From: Candidatus Electrothrix yaqonensis
Lineage (GTDB): Bacteria; Desulfobacterota; Desulfobulbia; Desulfobulbales; Desulfobulbaceae
NCBI GenBank assembly: GCA_047651235.1
Contig: CP178758.1
Location: 570,001-602,000, forward strand
Length of the DNA stretch: 32,000 bases
Reading direction: 5' to 3'
Part shown: piece by piece, positions 656 to 31,268 of the stretch
Layout of the letters: every line of letters begins with the position of its first letter
Numbering within the stretch: the stretch's first letter is position 1
Translations under genes and position numbers: made by a program
Notes under the pieces: generated by a model
Told to the model about the DNA's origin: nothing
The model's input: only the letters and a program-made list of their open reading frames with translations
Database searches by the model: none

Positions 656-763
656 GCTTTCCGGTTGATGACGGAAAGCTGAAAAAGCCACAACCGCCGT
701 GAGGCGGTGTCGGAAAGTCACGGGTCTCCGCAGGGGAGACGGCCGGGCTGCCTGCTTTTTATT
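656..763 (+). promoter_or_regulatory. Structured 5' leader candidate: three consecutive hairpins followed by a T-run, upstream of CDS 788-1837
   Basis: Hairpin 1 is GCTTTCCG/CGGAAAGC (656-663/672-679). Hairpin 2 is ACCGCC-GTGA-GGCGGT (693-708) with a GNRA-type loop. Hairpin 3 is GTCTCC-GCAGG-GGAGAC (724-740). CTGCTTTTTATT follows at 752-763. Confidence 0.3.
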
Positions 764-7284: not shown

Positions 7285-10200
7285 ATGAGACGGATTACAG
7301 AAATGGTGCTGCTTGTTGTTCTGCTGCTTGTCGGTATAACTCAGCCAGCCTTGTCAGAGGAGCTGCGATGGAAAGTATTGTACCGGAAGGCTGTGGAGCA
7401 TCTCAATCCGAAAAACAAACATGAATTTGAATGGGAACGGCTGAACCAAAAAATCACGGATGCTTCTGCCGGAAACGGTACGCCTGATCAGGTTATCTCC
7501 CTTGCTGAACAGACGTATAATTATGCAGCGAAGCATTTTGGATCAGGACACCCGTTCACAAATATTTCACGCAAGCGGTTAGTTTACGATATTTATTACA
7601 AGAATTCTGAAAAGTGTCTCAGGAGGTTTCAGGTCCTTTACTTGTTTGGACATCTCTATCCTCATTTGTTGAATGAGAACAGAGATGAGTTCGAACGTGA
7701 ATGGGAAGAAATTTATAAAGAGAGTTTACGCAGCGTTAAACTCAGTGAAAGCCAGAAACCCGCTAATGCTGCTGAACAGGCGTATAATTATGCCATGAAG
7801 TATCTCGGGCCGGAACATCCATCCACCCTGATTTCCATTGAACATCTTGCAGATTTTTATAGCAACCTCGGACGCTACCAAGAAGCTCAAGGGATCTATA
7901 AACAAGCCATTCAAATACAGGAAAAACGATTCGGGATAGAAAATCAGGATACGCTTCGCCTTATGAATTACGTGGCAAATTTGTATAACAAATTGGGACG
8001 AAGAAATCAGGCAGAGCTACTTTCCGACCGGGTTTTTCAGCTACGTAAAAAAGTATTAGGTGAGGACCATACTGATACTTTAATGTCTCTGCATAATCTG
8101 ACAATGTATTCCCTTTCACAAGGGCAAAAGCGGAAATCAGAGCCGCTTCTTCATAAATTCCTACAAGTTTATAACAGAATACATGGTGAGCATAATATGC
8201 TTACAATCAAAGTATCTATAGAACTTGCAAAATTGTTTAGATCACAAGGGAAGTATAATGAAGCAGAACAGCTGTTGCAAGAGCTGGCTGAAGCACTCCT
8301 GGGGGATACTAAATGGAAACCTGAATTGGTAGTTGTATACATAATGCAGAAAAAATACTCTGAGGCTGAAGCTGTGTTGAAAGAAGTCATCAATCAGCCT
8401 CAAGAACCTCACGGACCGAATATCGAGTACGATACTCTTCTGGATAGAGAAAGGTTAGCAGCATTGTATATGGATATGGAGCGGTACTCTGAAGCAGAGA
8501 CGCTTTTTAAGGAAGTGCTCGCACTGAAAGAAAAATATTATGGAAAAGAACAAGTCTATACTATAAGCACAATGCATAACCTTGCCGTATTATATAAAAA
8601 GGCAGGGAAACACAGCAAGGCGGAACCACTTTTTCAAAAGGCGCTCAAATTACGTGAAAAAGAACTGGGAAGGCATAATCATAAGACGATAGGCACGTTG
8701 GCTGCTTATATATTTTCACTTTTTGCTGCTGATCGATTCGATACCGCCTTTTCGCTGATGCAGGACTGGGAAAGCCGCCTGCTCTCCCGCTCCTTCCAGG
8801 AACTCTACACCAGTTCCAGCCATAATGTGCGGCGTCTGTATGAGCGGACGGTCAACTTCTTCCTGAATACAGTTTCTTCCCTTGCTGCCCAATACCCGAA
8901 AGAAAAGTATCAGCACTATGCTGCCGACGTTCTCCTGCGCTGGAAGCAGCTCTATGCTGAAGAAGAGGCTTTTCAGTATCAGCAGCTTGCCCGCAGCAGC
9001 GACCCGGAAATTATCGAGCTGAGAGCCAAGCTGGCAGAAGCACGGGTCAGGTTGAGTTTAGCCGAACGTCAGAACAAAAAAGAAGAGGAGATCGCCGAGC
9101 TGTTAGATGATTTTAATGAAGCTGAAACAGCCCTGCTGACACAGACTAAGCGTTTCAAATCGAATCTTGAGGTGGAAGGAGCGACTCTTGAGCAGGCGTT
9201 GTCCAGCCTTCCGCCGGGCAGCGGTTTAATCGAATACCGGCGTTTCCGTGCTGTGGATCTCCATGCCGACAAAACAAAAGAACCCCGCCTTGCTGCTCTG
9301 CTTCTTCTTGCCGATCCGAACAACGGACGGCGGTTTATCTTCCGTGACCTTGGACCGTTCGCGGAACTTGACAAGCTGTTGGATGATCTTGAAACGCTGA
9401 GAAGCAAAATTGCTGCATTGCGGGATAAAATTGCTGATCTGGACCGGAACGAGCAAAAAAGGGAGTTCTCCGCTCTGCTGGAACAGCTGGCGAATCTGCA
9501 GAAAGAAAAGGACAGAAAAAACACCGATGCTTGCAGAATACTGCTTGATCCTTTTGAACAGCAGATCAGAAATCTGAAACAGCTTTATATCGCCCCGGAC
9601 GGGAGAGTCAATTTTCTTTCTTTTGCTTCCACGCGCCTGCCTGACGGCCGTTTTCTCGCCGAACGTCAGCAGATCAACCGCCTGCAGACCGGCCGCGACC
9701 TGATCGAGAACGGCAAAGACTTTTCGAGGGGCAAAGGATTGATAGCTGTTGGTGGTGTAACCTATGGCCCCAAGCCCGCAAAGGATGACGAGGAACAGGA
9801 AAAACTCGAGCCGCAGCCTAAATTCGTCCTGCGCACTACCCGCCAGTTTGGGGACGGCTTTGTCTATCTGAAGGGGAGCAGAATAGAAGCAAAAAATATT
9901 TTTGCCAAATATGAAAATAATACCCAAGGCAAGCGATTTATCGGCGATGACGCCAGCGAATACAACCTCAAACACCTGAAGCAGCCGCCCCGCATCCTTC
10001 ACCTTTCCACCCACGGCTTTTACCTCACCGACGAGAAAAAAGAACTGGCAGACGAGGCCCCGCTCCTGCTTTCCGGCCTCGCCTTAGCCGGAGCCAACAA
10101 CGGCCTGCAAGGCAAGCTGGATAAACACGACGACGACGGTCTCCTCTACAGCCTGGAAGTCCTCGGCCTCAATCTTCAGGGTACAGAGCTGGTATCCCTA

Positions 10201-10485
10201 TCCGCCTGTGACACCGGCAAAGGCGTGGTGGATTACTCCGAAGGCGTGTACGGCTTGGTTCGCGCCTTCCGCACTGCCGGGGCCAAAAACGTCCTCATGA
10301 CCCTGACCCCGGTCGGCGACAGATCATCACGCGAGTTCATGGAAACCTTCTACGACCATTATCTTTCCGAAAACCTCACCCCATCCCAAGCCCTGCACAA
10401 AACCCGGATGGATTTCATCCACCATGAAAAACCGGCTTACCGCGACCCGGCGGTGTGGTCGCCGTATGTGCTGGTGGGTCGGTAA
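7285..10485 (+). CDS. Signal-peptide-bearing TPR repeat / coiled-coil / CHAT (caspase-fold peptidase) domain protein
   Basis: 1066 aa. The N-terminus MRRITEMVLLVVLLLVGITQPALS-EE is signal-like. Residues ~60-470 are TPR_10/12-like repeats (e.g. LHNLAVLYKKAGKHSKAEPLFQKALKLREKELG). A charged coiled-coil stretch is encoded at ~9000-9560. The C-terminal CHAT signature has His in LHLSTHGF (codon 10012-10014) and Cys in LSLSACDTGKG (codon 10207-10209). Confidence 0.85.
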   Translation: MRRITEMVLLVVLLLVGITQPALSEELRWKVLYRKAVEHLNPKNKHEFEWERLNQKITDASAGNGTPDQVISLAEQTYNYAAKHFGSGHPFTNISRKRLVYDIYYKNSEKCLRRFQVLYLFGHLYPHLLNENRDEFEREWEEIYKESLRSVKLSESQKPANAAEQAYNYAMKYLGPEHPSTLISIEHLADFYSNLGRYQEAQGIYKQAIQIQEKRFGIENQDTLRLMNYVANLYNKLGRRNQAELLSDRVFQLRKKVLGEDHTDTLMSLHNLTMYSLSQGQKRKSEPLLHKFLQVYNRIHGEHNMLTIKVSIELAKLFRSQGKYNEAEQLLQELAEALLGDTKWKPELVVVYIMQKKYSEAEAVLKEVINQPQEPHGPNIEYDTLLDRERLAALYMDMERYSEAETLFKEVLALKEKYYGKEQVYTISTMHNLAVLYKKAGKHSKAEPLFQKALKLREKELGRHNHKTIGTLAAYIFSLFAADRFDTAFSLMQDWESRLLSRSFQELYTSSSHNVRRLYERTVNFFLNTVSSLAAQYPKEKYQHYAADVLLRWKQLYAEEEAFQYQQLARSSDPEIIELRAKLAEARVRLSLAERQNKKEEEIAELLDDFNEAETALLTQTKRFKSNLEVEGATLEQALSSLPPGSGLIEYRRFRAVDLHADKTKEPRLAALLLLADPNNGRRFIFRDLGPFAELDKLLDDLETLRSKIAALRDKIADLDRNEQKREFSALLEQLANLQKEKDRKNTDACRILLDPFEQQIRNLKQLYIAPDGRVNFLSFASTRLPDGRFLAERQQINRLQTGRDLIENGKDFSRGKGLIAVGGVTYGPKPAKDDEEQEKLEPQPKFVLRTTRQFGDGFVYLKGSRIEAKNIFAKYENNTQGKRFIGDDASEYNLKHLKQPPRILHLSTHGFYLTDEKKELADEAPLLLSGLALAGANNGLQGKLDKHDDDGLLYSLEVLGLNLQGTELVSLSACDTGKGVVDYSEGVYGLVRAFRTAGAKNVLMTLTPVGDRSSREFMETFYDHYLSENLTPSQALHKTRMDFIHHEKPAYRDPAVWSPYVLVGR

Positions 10486-27654: not shown

Positions 27655-27702
27655 ATGAGGTGCTGTGCAATCTATGTGTAATCTCTGCTGGAGGAAAATA
27701 TT

Positions 27703-28098
27703 ATGGAACCCGTTATTGCAACGGCAATCATCAGCGGTATTCTCTGCGGCGCAACCACCGGTGCCGGTACTGTCGCGACAACAGAGCTGGTCGATGCCTA
27801 CAGGAGGCTCAGAGGTATGCTGCAGAAAAAATTTGGTGAGGACAGCATTCTGCTGCGCTCCATCGGCACCCTGGAGAAGCGGCCTGAATCAAAGGCGAAG
27901 CAGGACGGCGTCGTGGAAGATGTTGCCGAAGCCGAGGCGGACAAGGATGCCGAGCTTGTCAAGGCGGCTGAGGATTTGCTGGCAGAAGTGAAAAAGCAGG
28001 AGGGTGGCGAAGAAGCTGTTCGGCAGATCGTCAATCAGCAGGTAACCGGAGACAGTAATATTTTTTCCGGTACCGGTAATGTGACGGTCACAAAATGA
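27703..28098 (+). CDS. Small Bell-like protein: N-terminal hydrophobic Gly/Ala/Thr-rich helix, helical middle, C-terminal G/N/S-rich amyloid-type motif
   Basis: 131 aa with a good RBS. The N-terminus is MEPVIATAIISGILCGATTGAGTVATT. The C-terminus IVNQQVTGDSNIFSGTGNVTVTK (28027-28095) is echoed at the N-terminus of the next protein. Its stop overlaps the next start (ATGA at 28095-28098). Confidence 0.75.
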   Translation: MEPVIATAIISGILCGATTGAGTVATTELVDAYRRLRGMLQKKFGEDSILLRSIGTLEKRPESKAKQDGVVEDVAEAEADKDAELVKAAEDLLAEVKKQEGGEEAVRQIVNQQVTGDSNIFSGTGNVTVTK

Positions 28099-29750
28099 CG
28101 GGCGAAAAGATTGATCAGAACGTTGACGGCAAAGGGAATGCTTTTTCCGGCAGTGGGCCTGTGACCGTTAATAATATCACGAAGAATTATTACCCTCCTG
28201 AGAAGCCCTCCTCAACAACGAATGATCCTTCCGAATTAGCCCCTCTCTTCGGCGTACCCAATCTCCCACCGCGCTATCTGGAGCGACCCGAATACCTTGA
28301 TCCCTTCCGCGAGGCCCTGCTTTCCAGGGAAACAGAGGCGGTCGGGATTACCGGCAGGTCGCAGTATATCGGCGTGCAGGGAATGGGCGGGCTGGGCAAG
28401 TCGGTGCTTGCAGCGGCTTTGGCTTGGGATGAAGAGGTGCGCCGTACCTTCCCGGACGGTATCTTCTGGTTGCGTTTCGGGCAGGAGATGGATGAGGCCG
28501 GGGTGCTGGAGCTGCAAAAGGAAATCCTGCTGGTGCTTGCCCCGGACAGCCTGCCGGAGTCTCCGGCTCAAGGGCGAAACCTCCTCAATCTTGCCTTGCA
28601 GGGAAAACGCTGTCTGCTCATAGCCGATGATCTCTGGGAGAGCAGCCAGCTCAACCCGTTTGATCTTGCCGACTCCGGTTCTCGTTTTCTCCTCACTACC
28701 CGCAATAACGAGGTCATCCAGGAAACAGGCGCACACCGATGCGAACTGGAACTGCTCTCGGACAAGCAAGCACGGGAGCTGCTGGCAAAATGCTCCGGCT
28801 TTGCTGGGAAGGATCTGCCTGAAGAGGCGGAAGCAATCCTGCGGGAATGCGGTCGTCTCCCCTTGGCTGTGGCAGCCATCGGCAGCATGGTAAATGGCAA
28901 GGGGCGTAGTCGCTGGCAGTTGGCCTTGGACAAGCTGGAAAATGCCCGGCTGGATAAGATCCCGGCCAAATTTGATCGCTACAGCGGCTATGAAAACCTG
29001 TTCAAGGTCTTTCAGGTCAGTGTGGAAGACCTGCCGCCCGAGGTGCAGGACTATTTCAAAACGTTGATTGTCTTTGCAGAAGATACCGAGATACCCGAAT
29101 CTGTGCTTCAACTCTATTGGGAGCATATTGGTCAGGGGGAGTATGAGCCGCTGGAGGCGGTTGATTTGCTGGTGCAGCGGTCTTTGCTTAGTCCTGCCAA
29201 GAATGAGTCGTTTACCCTCCATGATTTGCTGCGTGATTACCTTGTCTTTCAGGCTGACGGTGAGGTTGCCGAGCTGCATAAACAACTACTGGAGGCATAT
29301 AAAGCTGCTTATCCTGACGGCTGGCATACGATCACAGATACCGATTCTTTCTACTTTGAAAAAAACTGGATGTATCATGCAGAAAAAGCTCAAGCAAAAG
29401 TTGATCTTGTTAAAGAGATAACAGCTGACTTTATTGATAATAATCCTCTTGAACATCTTCCTGGATTATCTGCACCATTGAATGGTATTGATGGATTATT
29501 TCGAGAGGATCACCCGGAAGCTATAGCTCGCATGTTGAATTTGAATAAAAAGAGTGATAAAGAAACTGTGAGCAACATTCTCGCTGAAGATCCAGCTACA
29601 AAGGAAATACAGCAATTGAGGAAAGAGTATGACAGTAACGTATTAGCATTGCGTGATGTGTTTAAGCAGTTGCCTACTGAGAAGCAAGAGCTACTAAGAA
29701 ATCTTGATCCAACTATACCTTTTTTTAAAGAAAAAAAATCAGATGAATAA
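28095..29750 (+). CDS. NB-ARC (STAND/NLR-like) NTPase with an N-terminal short motif matching the upstream protein; no repeat-type sensor domain
   Basis: 551 aa. The N-terminus is KIDQNVDGKGNAFSGSGPVTV (28107-28169). The NB-ARC motifs are Walker A GMGGLGKS (28380-28403), Walker B CLLIADDLW, RNBS-B-like RFLLTTRN and GLPL-like CGRLPLAV. A winged-helix-like FTLHDLLRDY follows. The C-terminal ~150 aa have no TPR/WD/LRR pattern. Confidence 0.85.
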   Translation: MTGEKIDQNVDGKGNAFSGSGPVTVNNITKNYYPPEKPSSTTNDPSELAPLFGVPNLPPRYLERPEYLDPFREALLSRETEAVGITGRSQYIGVQGMGGLGKSVLAAALAWDEEVRRTFPDGIFWLRFGQEMDEAGVLELQKEILLVLAPDSLPESPAQGRNLLNLALQGKRCLLIADDLWESSQLNPFDLADSGSRFLLTTRNNEVIQETGAHRCELELLSDKQARELLAKCSGFAGKDLPEEAEAILRECGRLPLAVAAIGSMVNGKGRSRWQLALDKLENARLDKIPAKFDRYSGYENLFKVFQVSVEDLPPEVQDYFKTLIVFAEDTEIPESVLQLYWEHIGQGEYEPLEAVDLLVQRSLLSPAKNESFTLHDLLRDYLVFQADGEVAELHKQLLEAYKAAYPDGWHTITDTDSFYFEKNWMYHAEKAQAKVDLVKEITADFIDNNPLEHLPGLSAPLNGIDGLFREDHPEAIARMLNLNKKSDKETVSNILAEDPATKEIQQLRKEYDSNVLALRDVFKQLPTEKQELLRNLDPTIPFFKEKKSDE

Positions 29751-30022: not shown

Positions 30023-30622
30023 ATGCCAATTCCTCAGCAAGAACCGCAACAGCAGATCAGCGAACAGGAATACCTGAACGGTGAACTCCTCAGTGAGGTG
30101 AAACACGAATTCATTGACGTTGCTGTTTACGCAATGGCAGGGGCCAGCGCTGACCACGGCAGAATAGCGGGCAACCTTTTTGCCGCCTTCCTGCGCCATC
30201 TTCAGGAACGGAAGTCACCGTGCGAGCCTTTCCTGGCTGATATGAAAGTGAAGACCGGCAACAAGTTCTTTTACCCGGATGTGCTTATCTCCTGTGAACA
30301 GGAAGAAAATGACTACTACCGCAATGCCCCTCTGCTCATTGTCGAGGTAGTCTCCCGATCGACCCGTAAAAAGGACAACACGCTCAAACGGCTATCTTAT
30401 CAGACGCTTCCCAGCCTGGAAGAATACGTTTTGATTGAGCAGGATTTTGTCGATATTGAGGTCTGTCGAAGGAGTAAGCACTGGTGGCCTGAACATTATT
30501 ATCTCGGTGACACAGTGCATTTCTCTTCCATTGACCTGACCCTGTCTGTCGAGGAAATTTATGCACGAGTCATGAATGATGATATGCAGGCGTACAGGAA
30601 AAATACAACACCCCATAAGTAA
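30023..30622 (+). CDS. Uma2 family (DUF820) PD-(D/E)XK-like endonuclease
   Basis: AAGGAG lies 8 nt upstream of the ATG. KHEFIDVAVYAMAGASADHGRIAGNL...YPDVLISC...PLLIVEVVSRST...D...K...Y...LEEYVLIEQD matches the Uma2 pattern. Confidence 0.8.
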   Translation: MPIPQQEPQQQISEQEYLNGELLSEVKHEFIDVAVYAMAGASADHGRIAGNLFAAFLRHLQERKSPCEPFLADMKVKTGNKFFYPDVLISCEQEENDYYRNAPLLIVEVVSRSTRKKDNTLKRLSYQTLPSLEEYVLIEQDFVDIEVCRRSKHWWPEHYYLGDTVHFSSIDLTLSVEEIYARVMNDDMQAYRKNTTPHK

Positions 30623-30641
30623 TAACCCAACAGGAGGTACA

Positions 30642-31268
30642 ATGCACTATGCCCGGATAATCCTCACCCTAACCCTTGCCTTCCTTGTCCTGGCAGGCCC
30701 TAGGCCCTCCACAGCCGAGGAGGAATTTGTCACCGCCCTGACCGGCAAGTTTCCACCCTTCAGCTATTACGATAAGCAAGGGAACCTTGCCGGTTTTGAC
30801 GTGGACGTGAGCCGGGAAATCGCTCGGCGGATCAACCGCAAATCCCGCATCATCGCCACGGAATGGGACGGCATTCTGGCAGGCCTGCTGGCCGAGAAAT
30901 ACGACGCCATCATCGGCTCAATGGCCATCACCCCTGCCCGGCAGGAGAGCGTAGATTTTTCCACGCCCTATTACCATTCCGGGGCACAGCTCTTCATCCA
31001 CCGCGATAACCCGGACAAGGTCTACTCCATTGAGGAGTGCAAGGGATTAGCCATTGCCGTGGTCCTGGGAGAGACCTACCAGCATTTTCTCGAAGAAAGG
31101 TTCCCGGATATCCAGGTGGTCACCCTCAAGTCAGCAGCCGAGATCTTTGCCATGCTGGAGCAGAAGCGGATCACCGGTTTTGTCACGGATCGGCTGGTCG
31201 GGGCCTGGCAAGTCAAGGGCAACGGGCTGCTCTACCGGATGCCAGTCTTTCAGCAGGATTATTCCTGA
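30642..31268 (+). CDS. Amino-acid ABC transporter substrate-binding protein (SBP_bac_3), probably 3'-truncated
   Basis: ATG at 30642 follows AGGAGG (30632-30637). A signal peptide MHYARIILTLTLAFLVLAGP is present. FPPFSY...GFDVDVSREIARR...EWDGILAGLLAEKYDAIIGSMAITPARQESVDFSTPYY are family motifs. The ORF ends at ~209 aa, before the usual C-terminal ~40-50 aa. Confidence 0.7.
   Translation: MHYARIILTLTLAFLVLAGPRPSTAEEEFVTALTGKFPPFSYYDKQGNLAGFDVDVSREIARRINRKSRIIATEWDGILAGLLAEKYDAIIGSMAITPARQESVDFSTPYYHSGAQLFIHRDNPDKVYSIEECKGLAIAVVLGETYQHFLEERFPDIQVVTLKSAAEIFAMLEQKRITGFVTDRLVGAWQVKGNGLLYRMPVFQQDYS

Follow-up and report, generated by a model that had tools for sequence, protein, structure and literature searches.

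Two adjoining genes in the 32,000-nucleotide stretch of the Candidatus Electrothrix yaqonensis genome analysed here (contig CP178758.1, positions 570,001 to 602,000; referred to as the window) probably constitute a signalling module of the bacterial amyloid-signalling (BASS) type, in which a NOD-like receptor (NLR) is connected to a small Bell-domain effector by a peptide motif that both proteins carry. The first open reading frame, ORF1, encodes the putative effector and the second, ORF2, the putative receptor; both are identical to the YB6 database entries of Candidatus Electrothrix sp. YB6, and the host is a cable bacterium, multicellular and filamentous. The proposal is built on comparative sequence analysis: the homologies of the two proteins, the adjacency of their genes, the matched termini, the concerted replacement of both motif copies at the orthologous locus, and the loss of the Bell gene where the NLR is without a motif. 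From these we infer, more conditionally, amyloid formation, templating, membrane toxicity, a trigger and a biological role. So read, the system is of a known type; it is a new variant of that type in a new lineage, the cable bacteria.

The two genes lie on the plus strand and overlap by ATGA. The motif at the C-terminus of ORF1, IVNQQVTGDSNIFSGTGNVTV, and that at the N-terminus of ORF2, KIDQNVDGKGNAFSGSGPVTV, are identical at 11 of 21 residues in the same register. On shuffling both 40-residue termini 5000 times, the best 21-mer identity averaged 5.0 and rose to 9 at most, with no shuffle reaching 11, and all other 21-mers in the ORF segments of the window (17,790 examined) agree at 7 of 21 positions or fewer. 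The identity between the termini is not a matter of chance. An earlier note on this DNA, made by reading its letters, had found the alignment by hand, together with the shared DNA cores TTTTTCCGG and TGTGAC, the overlap, the lengths of both proteins and the positions of both motifs; direct counting confirms all of this. Its description of the genes as translationally coupled holds for the overlap in the window, but coupling is not conserved, the gap between effector and NLR genes in orthologues ranging from -4 to +87 nt. The motif-coding DNA is identical at 38 of 63 positions and the same codon is used at only 5 of the 11 identical residues, which argues that the similarity has been kept at the level of protein and does not stem from a recent DNA duplication. 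A hidden Markov model (HMM) derived from the effector motifs also matches the ORF2 N-terminus (E=2.9e-4, over all ORF segments of 30 sources); in the ORF2 orthologues P0042-P0045 the same segment reads KIDQxVDGxGNAFSGSGPVTVNN.

The matched termini are not confined to the window. Twenty-nine related loci were scanned with the motif HMM, and about 18 further adjacent gene pairs carry the motif on the effector C-terminus and the partner N-terminus, which is what the earlier note had proposed to look for in homologous pairs. A BASS-type motif is expected in five or more non-redundant pairs, a number that class A exceeds. The motif of these pairs, designated class A, has the consensus [IV]xQxVxGxxNIF[ST]GxG[ND][IV]x[IV], with Q, G, N and G invariant and one further G nearly so. 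It has much N (13.4%), G (15.8%), V (13.4%), I (11.4%) and Q (7.8%) and very little K (1.2%), P (0.3%) or L (0.6%); its bias, toward N, G, V, I, T and Q as against K, P and L, is that published for BASS motifs. Class A effectors are Bell-like proteins or CHAT proteases, and their partners are NB-ARC proteins with tetratricopeptide repeats (TPR), NACHT proteins with or without TPR, and AAA_16 STAND NTPases. The pairs are collinear except for one (L023/L024), in which the partner is the divergent upstream gene. Their hosts are Electrothrix and one uncultured deltaproteobacterium, most of the others being on unassigned metagenome contigs; an Anaerolineae metagenome-assembled genome has a motif-bearing Bell gene, the partner position lying beyond the sequenced stretch examined. 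A HMMER pass of the motif over 1.84 billion representative proteins gave 45 matches at E<=1e-3, mostly C-terminal on proteins of 100-150 amino acids or N-terminal on larger ones, with TIR, EAD5, CHAT, NACHT, nSTAND1, nSTAND6 and TPR among the carrier domains. A motif-only profile run against an index of 5.8 billion proteins returned 11 matches, all of them short fragments.

Some carriers depart from the two-gene plan. On a contig of the uncultured deltaproteobacterium (MFD02979.bin.2.87; L004, L007), four class A effector/NACHT pairs stand in tandem within ~19 kb; the effector is Bell-like in two of them and of the CHAT type in the other two. A truncated remnant of 50 residues is all that is left of one effector, and at least one NACHT gene is interrupted. 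Several proteins are fused: P0164 (533 amino acids) strings together Bell, motif, linker, motif and NACHT, by true fusion or through a missed stop codon, P0052 (663 amino acids) is TIR-motif-NB-ARC, P0174 is TIR-Bell-motif and P0192 is TIR-CHAT-motif. TPR-only proteins of ~370-615 amino acids, devoid of an NTPase, carry the class A motif VTQEVRGDGNIFSGTGNVTVNG at residues ~30-60 (L006, L008-L011, L025-L027); they belong to Electronema and Electrothrix laxa. No effector gene adjoins them in the flanks inspected (L006, L008-L011), where the neighbours resemble toxin-antitoxin genes. Signalling in trans is suggested by the E. laxa chromosome, where such an orphan TPR carrier (L009) occurs along with a Bell/NLR pair (L001). 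Besides, FSGSGDVxV, which makes up the second half of the motif, matches the per-repeat signature of P0175 (DUF4097) and of P0162, P0167 and P0194 (phage BppL_N/VP5-type repeats), with 4-11 such stretches per protein. This likeness is most likely convergent; it would be compatible with stacking and a β-solenoid-like propensity.

The syntenic locus in other Electrothrix strains carries the argument further. The order Bell gene, NB-ARC gene, Uma2 gene, solute-binding protein (SBP)/ATP-binding cassette (ABC) transporter gene is common to the window, E. communis, GW3-4, E. aarhusensis and contig L038. Both genes have class A in the window and in E. communis; at the same locus of E. aarhusensis both have a different motif, class B (GSGAIAQxGSxAAGAGGVAxGGN). 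The E. aarhusensis Bell domain is almost identical to that of E. communis, but its tail is HGSGAIAQNGSTAAGAGGVAVGGN and the adjoining NB-ARC protein starts with KGSGAIAQDGSIAAGAGGVAIGGN. In DNA, the two loci are ~70-96% identical (mostly >80%) over effector nucleotides 1-270 and again from ~120 nt into the NLR gene; between these lies one junction block, running from the 3' end of the effector gene through the spacer into the 5' end of the NLR gene, that is unalignable (16-57% identity). The alignment indicates that a single cassette with both motifs has been exchanged. The window and E. communis differ elsewhere: motif and NLR are mostly 80-98% identical, and the first 250 nt of the Bell gene only 31-64%. 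P0021, in turn, joins the window's Bell type to a class B tail and adjoins a NACHT-FGE-sulfatase protein that carries GSGAVAQGGSVAAGEKGVAVGG, also class B. Together, these comparisons show that all four combinations of Bell type and motif class exist and that the receptor always follows the motif. Two more matched variants were found (L016, L039), and a syntenic NB-ARC orthologue whose N-terminus is a coiled coil, with no motif, has no Bell gene at its locus. Thus, the orthologous locus exists in class A, class B and motif-less/Bell-less states, with the globular Bell domain swapped independently. Orthologous pairs that differ only in their motif cassette or only in their Bell domain amount to a natural experiment, and provide ready-made chimeras for the study of pairing specificity.

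Whether partners covary was another check put forward in the earlier note, and the answer has two parts. Across motif classes, none of 20,000 permutations reaches the observed sum of partner alignment scores, in keeping with the cassette swap. Within class A, 6648 of 20,000 do (p ~0.33), partners being no closer to each other than to non-partners. Covariation therefore exists only at the level of the motif class, and class A behaves, in these alignments, as one interchangeable specificity. L038, with NVVAG or NIVAG on its two sides, was considered as a separate class C and rejected, since its partner ranks only 10th by alignment score; it is kept as a sub-variant of class A and does not count as an independent swap. 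Class B was likewise compared with BASS6 and the identification rejected, the scores being only 10-13.5 bits against a self median of 41. Two side observations belong to these loci. A second Bell paralogue of Electrothrix sp. YB6, encoded outside the window (P0027, ACL93V_03320), ends in another tail, IDQKVSGDHNKVIAIGKGDKVNITA, which is similar to the L016 variant. Beside the motif-less NB-ARC orthologue (L040, 1588-2559, minus strand) lies the gene of a 323-residue secreted protein with cysteine-rich repeats of ~40 residues, C.P.RGYS.Y.WDFE.CKPCE.G.RNRDG.G.CEG, for which there is no Pfam family.

The motif-coding stretches of ORF1 and ORF2 are only 17 bp apart, and one could therefore see in the terminal similarity a relic without function, left by gene fission or by a local duplication spanning the junction; the single-chain arrangement of P0164 might seem a precedent. 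We consider this very unlikely, to the point of being negligible. Matched termini are kept across genera and across differing families of effector and receptor, both copies have been replaced together by another matched pair, and the sparse sharing of codons has already been referred to. The effector-side motif is, moreover, the most conserved part of its protein: most of the 29 ORF1 homologues (mainly from cable bacteria) retain the block VRQIVNQQVTGxxNIFSGTGNVTVT[RK], while their globular domains go down to ~47% identity.

That globular domain is, judged by profile comparison, homologous to the Bell domains of Dyrka and co-workers. A profile of ORF1 residues 1-103 matches the published Bell-side sequences PLS85526.1 (67 bits), AFR28659.1 (46), CCI22909.1 (40) and KZB79293.1 (39); the comparison drew on 18 sequences from the PMC8086366 supplement, which are C-terminal fragments only, and E-values range from 2e-21 to 1e-12. 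The size of ORF1 fits Bell effectors, which have ~120-140 amino acids with an all-helical domain of ~100 residues, and the AlphaFold2 (AF2) model is a six-helix bundle over residues 4-115 (predicted local distance difference test score, pLDDT, 70.8); from ~residue 114 on, the tail is disordered. At the N-terminus, MEPVIATAIISGILCGATTGAGTVATT is a hydrophobic, Gly-rich stretch with a Kyte-Doolittle maximum of 1.64 in a 19-residue window. Its start, MEPVIATAIISGIL (MEPV), has an acidic residue at position 2, and nearly all of the 29 homologues begin with M[ED] (an M[ED]P/I pattern). An acidic residue 2/3 together with a hydrophobic N-terminal helix is described as the 'MEPIS' region of Bab, Bell, Hell and Babybell domains. 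Insertion of this helix into the membrane is suggested by that analogy. The earlier note's description of ORF1 as Bell-like, with a hydrophobic N-terminus rich in Gly, Ala and Thr, is thus sustained by profiles and by hydropathy.

ORF2 is, by sequence and by model, an Apaf-1-like NB-ARC STAND NTPase. Its NB-ARC domain is recognised by Pfam with E=6e-31 (residues 88-312), and there are weak matches to APAF-1-like_WHD and APAF1_C. The motifs GMGGLGKS, LLIADDLW, LLTTRN and GRLPLAV, read earlier as a complete NB-ARC set, are indeed present, and G99, G101, K102, S103, D178 and W181 are invariant across 36 homologues. The AF2 model (pLDDT 77 overall, >90 in the core) has disordered residues 1-45 and low-confidence helices over ~442/455-551; its best Foldseek match is Apaf-1 (1z6t, E=1e-20, 508 columns), followed by plant NLRs of the NRC/ZAR1 type and CED-4. 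Close orthologues, with 70-86% core identity, range in length from 467 to 953 amino acids, and the long ones end in 28-residue repeats, LLKESxxxxVLxACLxILGxEAKEDARR. P0044 has 11 such units, with a mean internal identity of 64% and values up to 100%, and P0061 has 16; variation (in P0044, P0061, P0042 and P0045) is concentrated at positions 5-12 of the unit. In their variable copy number and very high internal identity these repeats resemble the internally conserved repeats of fungal NLRs. The repeat-less form of the window's ORF2 is also that of P0046, P0047 and P0058; the short form is therefore recurrent, and not a local truncation, so that the locus demonstrates a repeat-less NB-ARC form recurring in nature. 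The E. gigas partner carries TPR, and in other ORF2-related NB-ARC proteins of cable bacteria an N-terminal TIR domain takes the place of the motif, an 'all-in-one' alternative.

The mechanism that we envisage would run as follows. On activation by some trigger, ORF2 would switch and oligomerise, and its N-terminal motifs (residues 5-25), until then disordered, would thereby gather and stack in a β-arch (cross-β) fold. That fold would template the homologous C-terminal motif of the Bell protein (ORF1 residues 109-129), and conversion of the tail might release the N-terminal hydrophobic helix for insertion into the membrane and killing of the cell. The outcome would be abortive infection or the sacrifice of a damaged cell within the cable filament.

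A number of results weigh against this picture, or against the assignment of one or other of its parts. In the AF2 monomer models the effector motif is disordered and the NLR motif has pLDDT ~30 and just two three-residue strands, so that these models lend the amyloid reading of the motif no structural support. ORF1 itself is below all Pfam thresholds, and its homologues P0006, P0027 and P0023 score 24.6, 23.8 and 22.4 bits with PF20701 (HetE-N) against a gathering cut-off of 25. Precomputed tags give PF20701 for all 29 homologues; the published Bell C-terminal fragments have no PF20701 match in the Pfam scan, the profile requiring the N-terminal half. ORF1 has no sequence match and no Foldseek fold match in the PDB, and PADLOC and NCBIfam offered nothing useful for it. 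Neither protein has a PADLOC-DB 2.0 match at E<=1, and the pair occupies a conserved site on the chromosome, not a defence island. ORF2 has no TPR, WD or other repeat in the Pfam scan and no recognised sensor domain. It had been called sensor-less in the earlier note, and rightly as regards TPR and WD repeats, but it does have a helical tail of 110 residues, and the number of 28-residue repeats in orthologues runs from 0 to ~16. The permutations within class A, given above, are to be counted here as well.

The disorder of the motif in the monomer models also counts in favour of the main rival account, which keeps the pairing and dispenses with the amyloid: the motif would be an adaptor-like recruitment tag, working by stoichiometric β-strand pairing or hetero-oligomer contact, with no self-propagating cross-β fold. 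Matched termini and covariation at the level of the class need nothing beyond specific motif-motif recognition, and in P0052 the motif stands between TIR and NB-ARC, a position in which there is no evident need to template a separate effector. We nevertheless regard this account as unlikely. The composition of the motif and its pattern of Gly, Asn and Gln match BASS1, BASS3 and BASS11, which are reported to form prion-like amyloids in experiments; its second half resembles the per-rung repeat of β-helix proteins (P0175); and the Bell family to which ORF1 would belong is the one that is used in amyloid-controlled systems.

What such a module might be for is another matter. It could be a developmental or housekeeping pair, serving cell fate or filament fragmentation, for example, with a non-lethal Bell protein, and neither an immune nor a suicide device. 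Its residence at a syntenic chromosomal locus, with Uma2 and an amino-acid ABC transporter alongside, in five or more Electrothrix genomes or contigs would suit such a role, as would the failure to match PADLOC and the lack of any copy of the motif in the phage records or viral contigs searched. This alternative seems to us highly improbable, however, given that the motif family is linked to CHAT, TIR, EAD5, nSTAND and NACHT, which are typical of conflict systems, that the NLR repeats vary in number with internal identities that are those of fast-evolving receptors, and that motif cassette, Bell domain and NLR N-terminus have all been swapped at this locus. The association with conflict-type domains and the fast-evolving repeats make a role in defence plausible.

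Bell/NLR pairs with the motifs BASS1-10 are known from Actinobacteria, Cyanobacteria, Chloroflexi and Methanosarcinales (Dyrka et al. 2020, 10.1101/2020.01.06.895854), the first two groups accounting for most of the descriptions. The pair in the window is like them in most respects: a Bell protein of ~130 amino acids with a hydrophobic N-terminal helix and a C-terminal motif of 20-25 residues; a collinear adjoining NB-ARC or NACHT gene, overlapping or at a tiny distance, with the motif at its N-terminus; a motif with much N, Q, G, V and I but little K, P or L; a multicellular filamentous host; and occurrence of the motif on CHAT and TIR effectors also. It differs in that the motif is outside BASS1-10 and that its NLR lacks TPR and WD, orthologues using the 28-residue repeat instead. 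The class A HMM scores 43-55 bits on its own members and at most 8.1 bits on 175 BASS1-10 sequences; BASS1-10 HMMs, built from one cross-validation fold (those 175 sequences), give at most 10.1 bits on the class A motif, which is cross-family noise. Literal class A cores occur in no BASS file of the published data set, and a few cyanobacterial pairs that have no class assigned (EKU96908.1, BAY13571/2) share only IxQxVxG[DN]xN, the first half of the motif. In the 2020 survey, Desulfobulbia had 0 Bell and 0 NB-ARC genomes among 34, and Desulfobacterota had no BASS pairs (10.1101/2020.01.06.895854). The claim of a module in a different lineage has thus stood up. Among the papers searched, none links cable bacteria with NLRs or amyloid, and none prints the class A motif. 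Cable bacteria are obligately multicellular Desulfobacterota and none was in the original survey, so that they provide an independent test of the association of Bell domains and BASS motifs with multicellularity; being multicellular and filamentous, they fit that association and do not break it.

A further comparison is with Bab/Agp, an abortive-infection system of E. coli with the motif BASS11 (Ibarlosa et al. 2024, 10.1101/2024.11.07.622273). There, too, a small Bell-related effector with an MEP-type N-terminus ends in a motif that recurs at the start of the sensor encoded next to it. The reported carriers of BASS11 are TIR, CHAT, NACHT and NB-ARC proteins, along with a TPR sensor; they resemble those of class A, and motif-bearing TPR proteins exist in Electronema too. 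Differences are that the effector in the window has a full-size Bell domain (~104 residues) in place of an ~80-residue Babybell, and that the window locus is in neither a prophage nor a defence island. The Bab residues V90, Q92, D99 and N100 and four glycines could be fitted to class A if Bab has, as we suppose, a QQ doublet; the position before the invariant N is variable in class A, whereas D99 is described as a key conserved residue of Bab. No 109-residue enterobacterial (Bab-like) protein is among the 45 motif matches and no viral contig has the motif core, which counts against kinship with BASS11. Profiles, then, set class A apart from BASS1-10, and comparison with BASS11, by description only, points both ways. 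The suggestion that the motif variant may be undescribed accordingly stands as regards BASS1-10 and is tentative as regards BASS11. As a compact motif class with conserved Q, G, N, G and G, class A would in any case be well suited to work with peptides and by solid-state nuclear magnetic resonance.

In Podospora anserina, an amyloid fold is templated from the NLR NWD2 to the HeLo-domain protein HET-S. What is proposed here is similar, in that the N-terminal motif of an NLR would template the tail of an adjoining, pore-forming helical-bundle protein, and that the motifs of receptor and effector are akin, each side having a signature of its own. The kingdom is different, the fungal HRAM motif and HeLo domain are unrelated in sequence to their counterparts, and HET-S has two pseudo-repeats where there is a single copy here. 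With the TIR-NB-ARC proteins and the Avs and bNACHT antiphage STAND NTPases the pair shares the NB-ARC/STAND core. In all-in-one bacterial NLRs, however, the effector is fused to the NTPase; here it is a separate gene product, coupled through a common peptide.

The coding sequences of effector tail and receptor head adjoin at the gene junction, and the signalling 'wire' between the two proteins would therefore be a single replaceable cassette. We put forward, tentatively and as one possible account, a model in which this cassette of ~150-300 bp may be replaced in one recombination event that would re-address both genes at once, and in which class A might also serve as a common currency, within a genome, between unlinked TPR-only sensors and Bell, CHAT, TIR and EAD5 effectors.

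Table 1. Features of the gene pair and its surroundings, in window coordinates
Feature	Position	Strand	Basis or remark
GGAGGA, Shine-Dalgarno-like	27690..27695	+	7 nt before the ORF1 ATG; read from sequence
ORF1, 131-residue putative Bell-domain effector (P0001, ACL93V_02745)	27703..28098	+	ORF list, 29 homologues, AF2 model, Bell profile match
ORF1 hydrophobic Gly/Ala/Thr-rich N-terminal segment, residues 1-27	27703..27783	+	Kyte-Doolittle; presumed membrane-inserting helix
Effector-side class A motif IVNQQVTGDSNIFSGTGNVTV, ORF1 residues 109-129	28027..28089	+	Homologue conservation
Conserved block around the effector motif, ORF1 residues 105-131	28015..28095	+	Homologue alignment
ORF2, 551-residue NB-ARC STAND NTPase (P0041)	28095..29750	+	Pfam, AF2, Foldseek
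Receptor-side class A motif KIDQNVDGKGNAFSGSGPVTV, ORF2 residues 5-25, then disordered linker to ~residue 45	28107..28169	+	Motif HMM, orthologues
Motif cassette, contiguous 155 bp spanning the gene junction, encoding both motif copies	28015..28169	+	E. communis vs E. aarhusensis DNA
NB-ARC nucleotide-binding domain, ORF2 residues 88-312	28356..29030	+	Pfam, 36 homologues
P-loop GMGGLGKS, residues 96-103	28380-28403	+	Read from sequence
Walker B LLIADDLW, residues 174-181	28614-28637	+	Read from sequence
Winged-helix domain (residues 316-383) and Apaf-1-type helical domain (residues 392-441)	29040..29417	+	Weak Pfam, structure match
ORF2 C-terminal 110-residue helical tail without repeats, putative short-form sensor region	29418..29747	+	Low-confidence AF2 helices
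Uma2-family gene, conserved downstream neighbour	30023..30622	+	Pfam Uma2 E=1.6e-24

A scan for promoters and terminators around the pair gave counts within ~1 shuffle standard deviation, too near to chance for any claim on transcription signals. Inside the NB-ARC gene there is a 349-residue antisense ORF (28236-29285, minus strand), which we read, from the sequence, as a shadow ORF of the conserved plus-strand gene. The Uma2-family gene, putatively restriction endonuclease-like, is the next gene after the NB-ARC gene in all the syntenic Electrothrix loci examined (L033, L035, L037, L038); we regard it as a conserved neighbour and do not claim it as a member of the module. Beyond it, the SBP_bac_3 gene of the window (30576-31268, plus strand) specifies only 230 amino acids, and only residues 1-195 of the 473-residue SBP-permease fusion of E. 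communis align with it (30642-31226, 88% identity); past ~31226, the permease half is absent or has moved elsewhere.

Two features stand further upstream. A 1066-residue TPR-CHAT protein (7285-10485, plus strand; CHAT E=9e-54), caspase-like and of conflict type, is encoded ~17 kb upstream of the pair; the class A motif HMM has no match in it. A c-di-GMP-I-GGC riboswitch aptamer (678-756, plus strand) is recognised by Rfam RF03167 with 59.2 bits (gathering score 59; E=1e-11), and lies just upstream of, or overlaps, the start of an ORF (707-1837) that is without a Pfam match.

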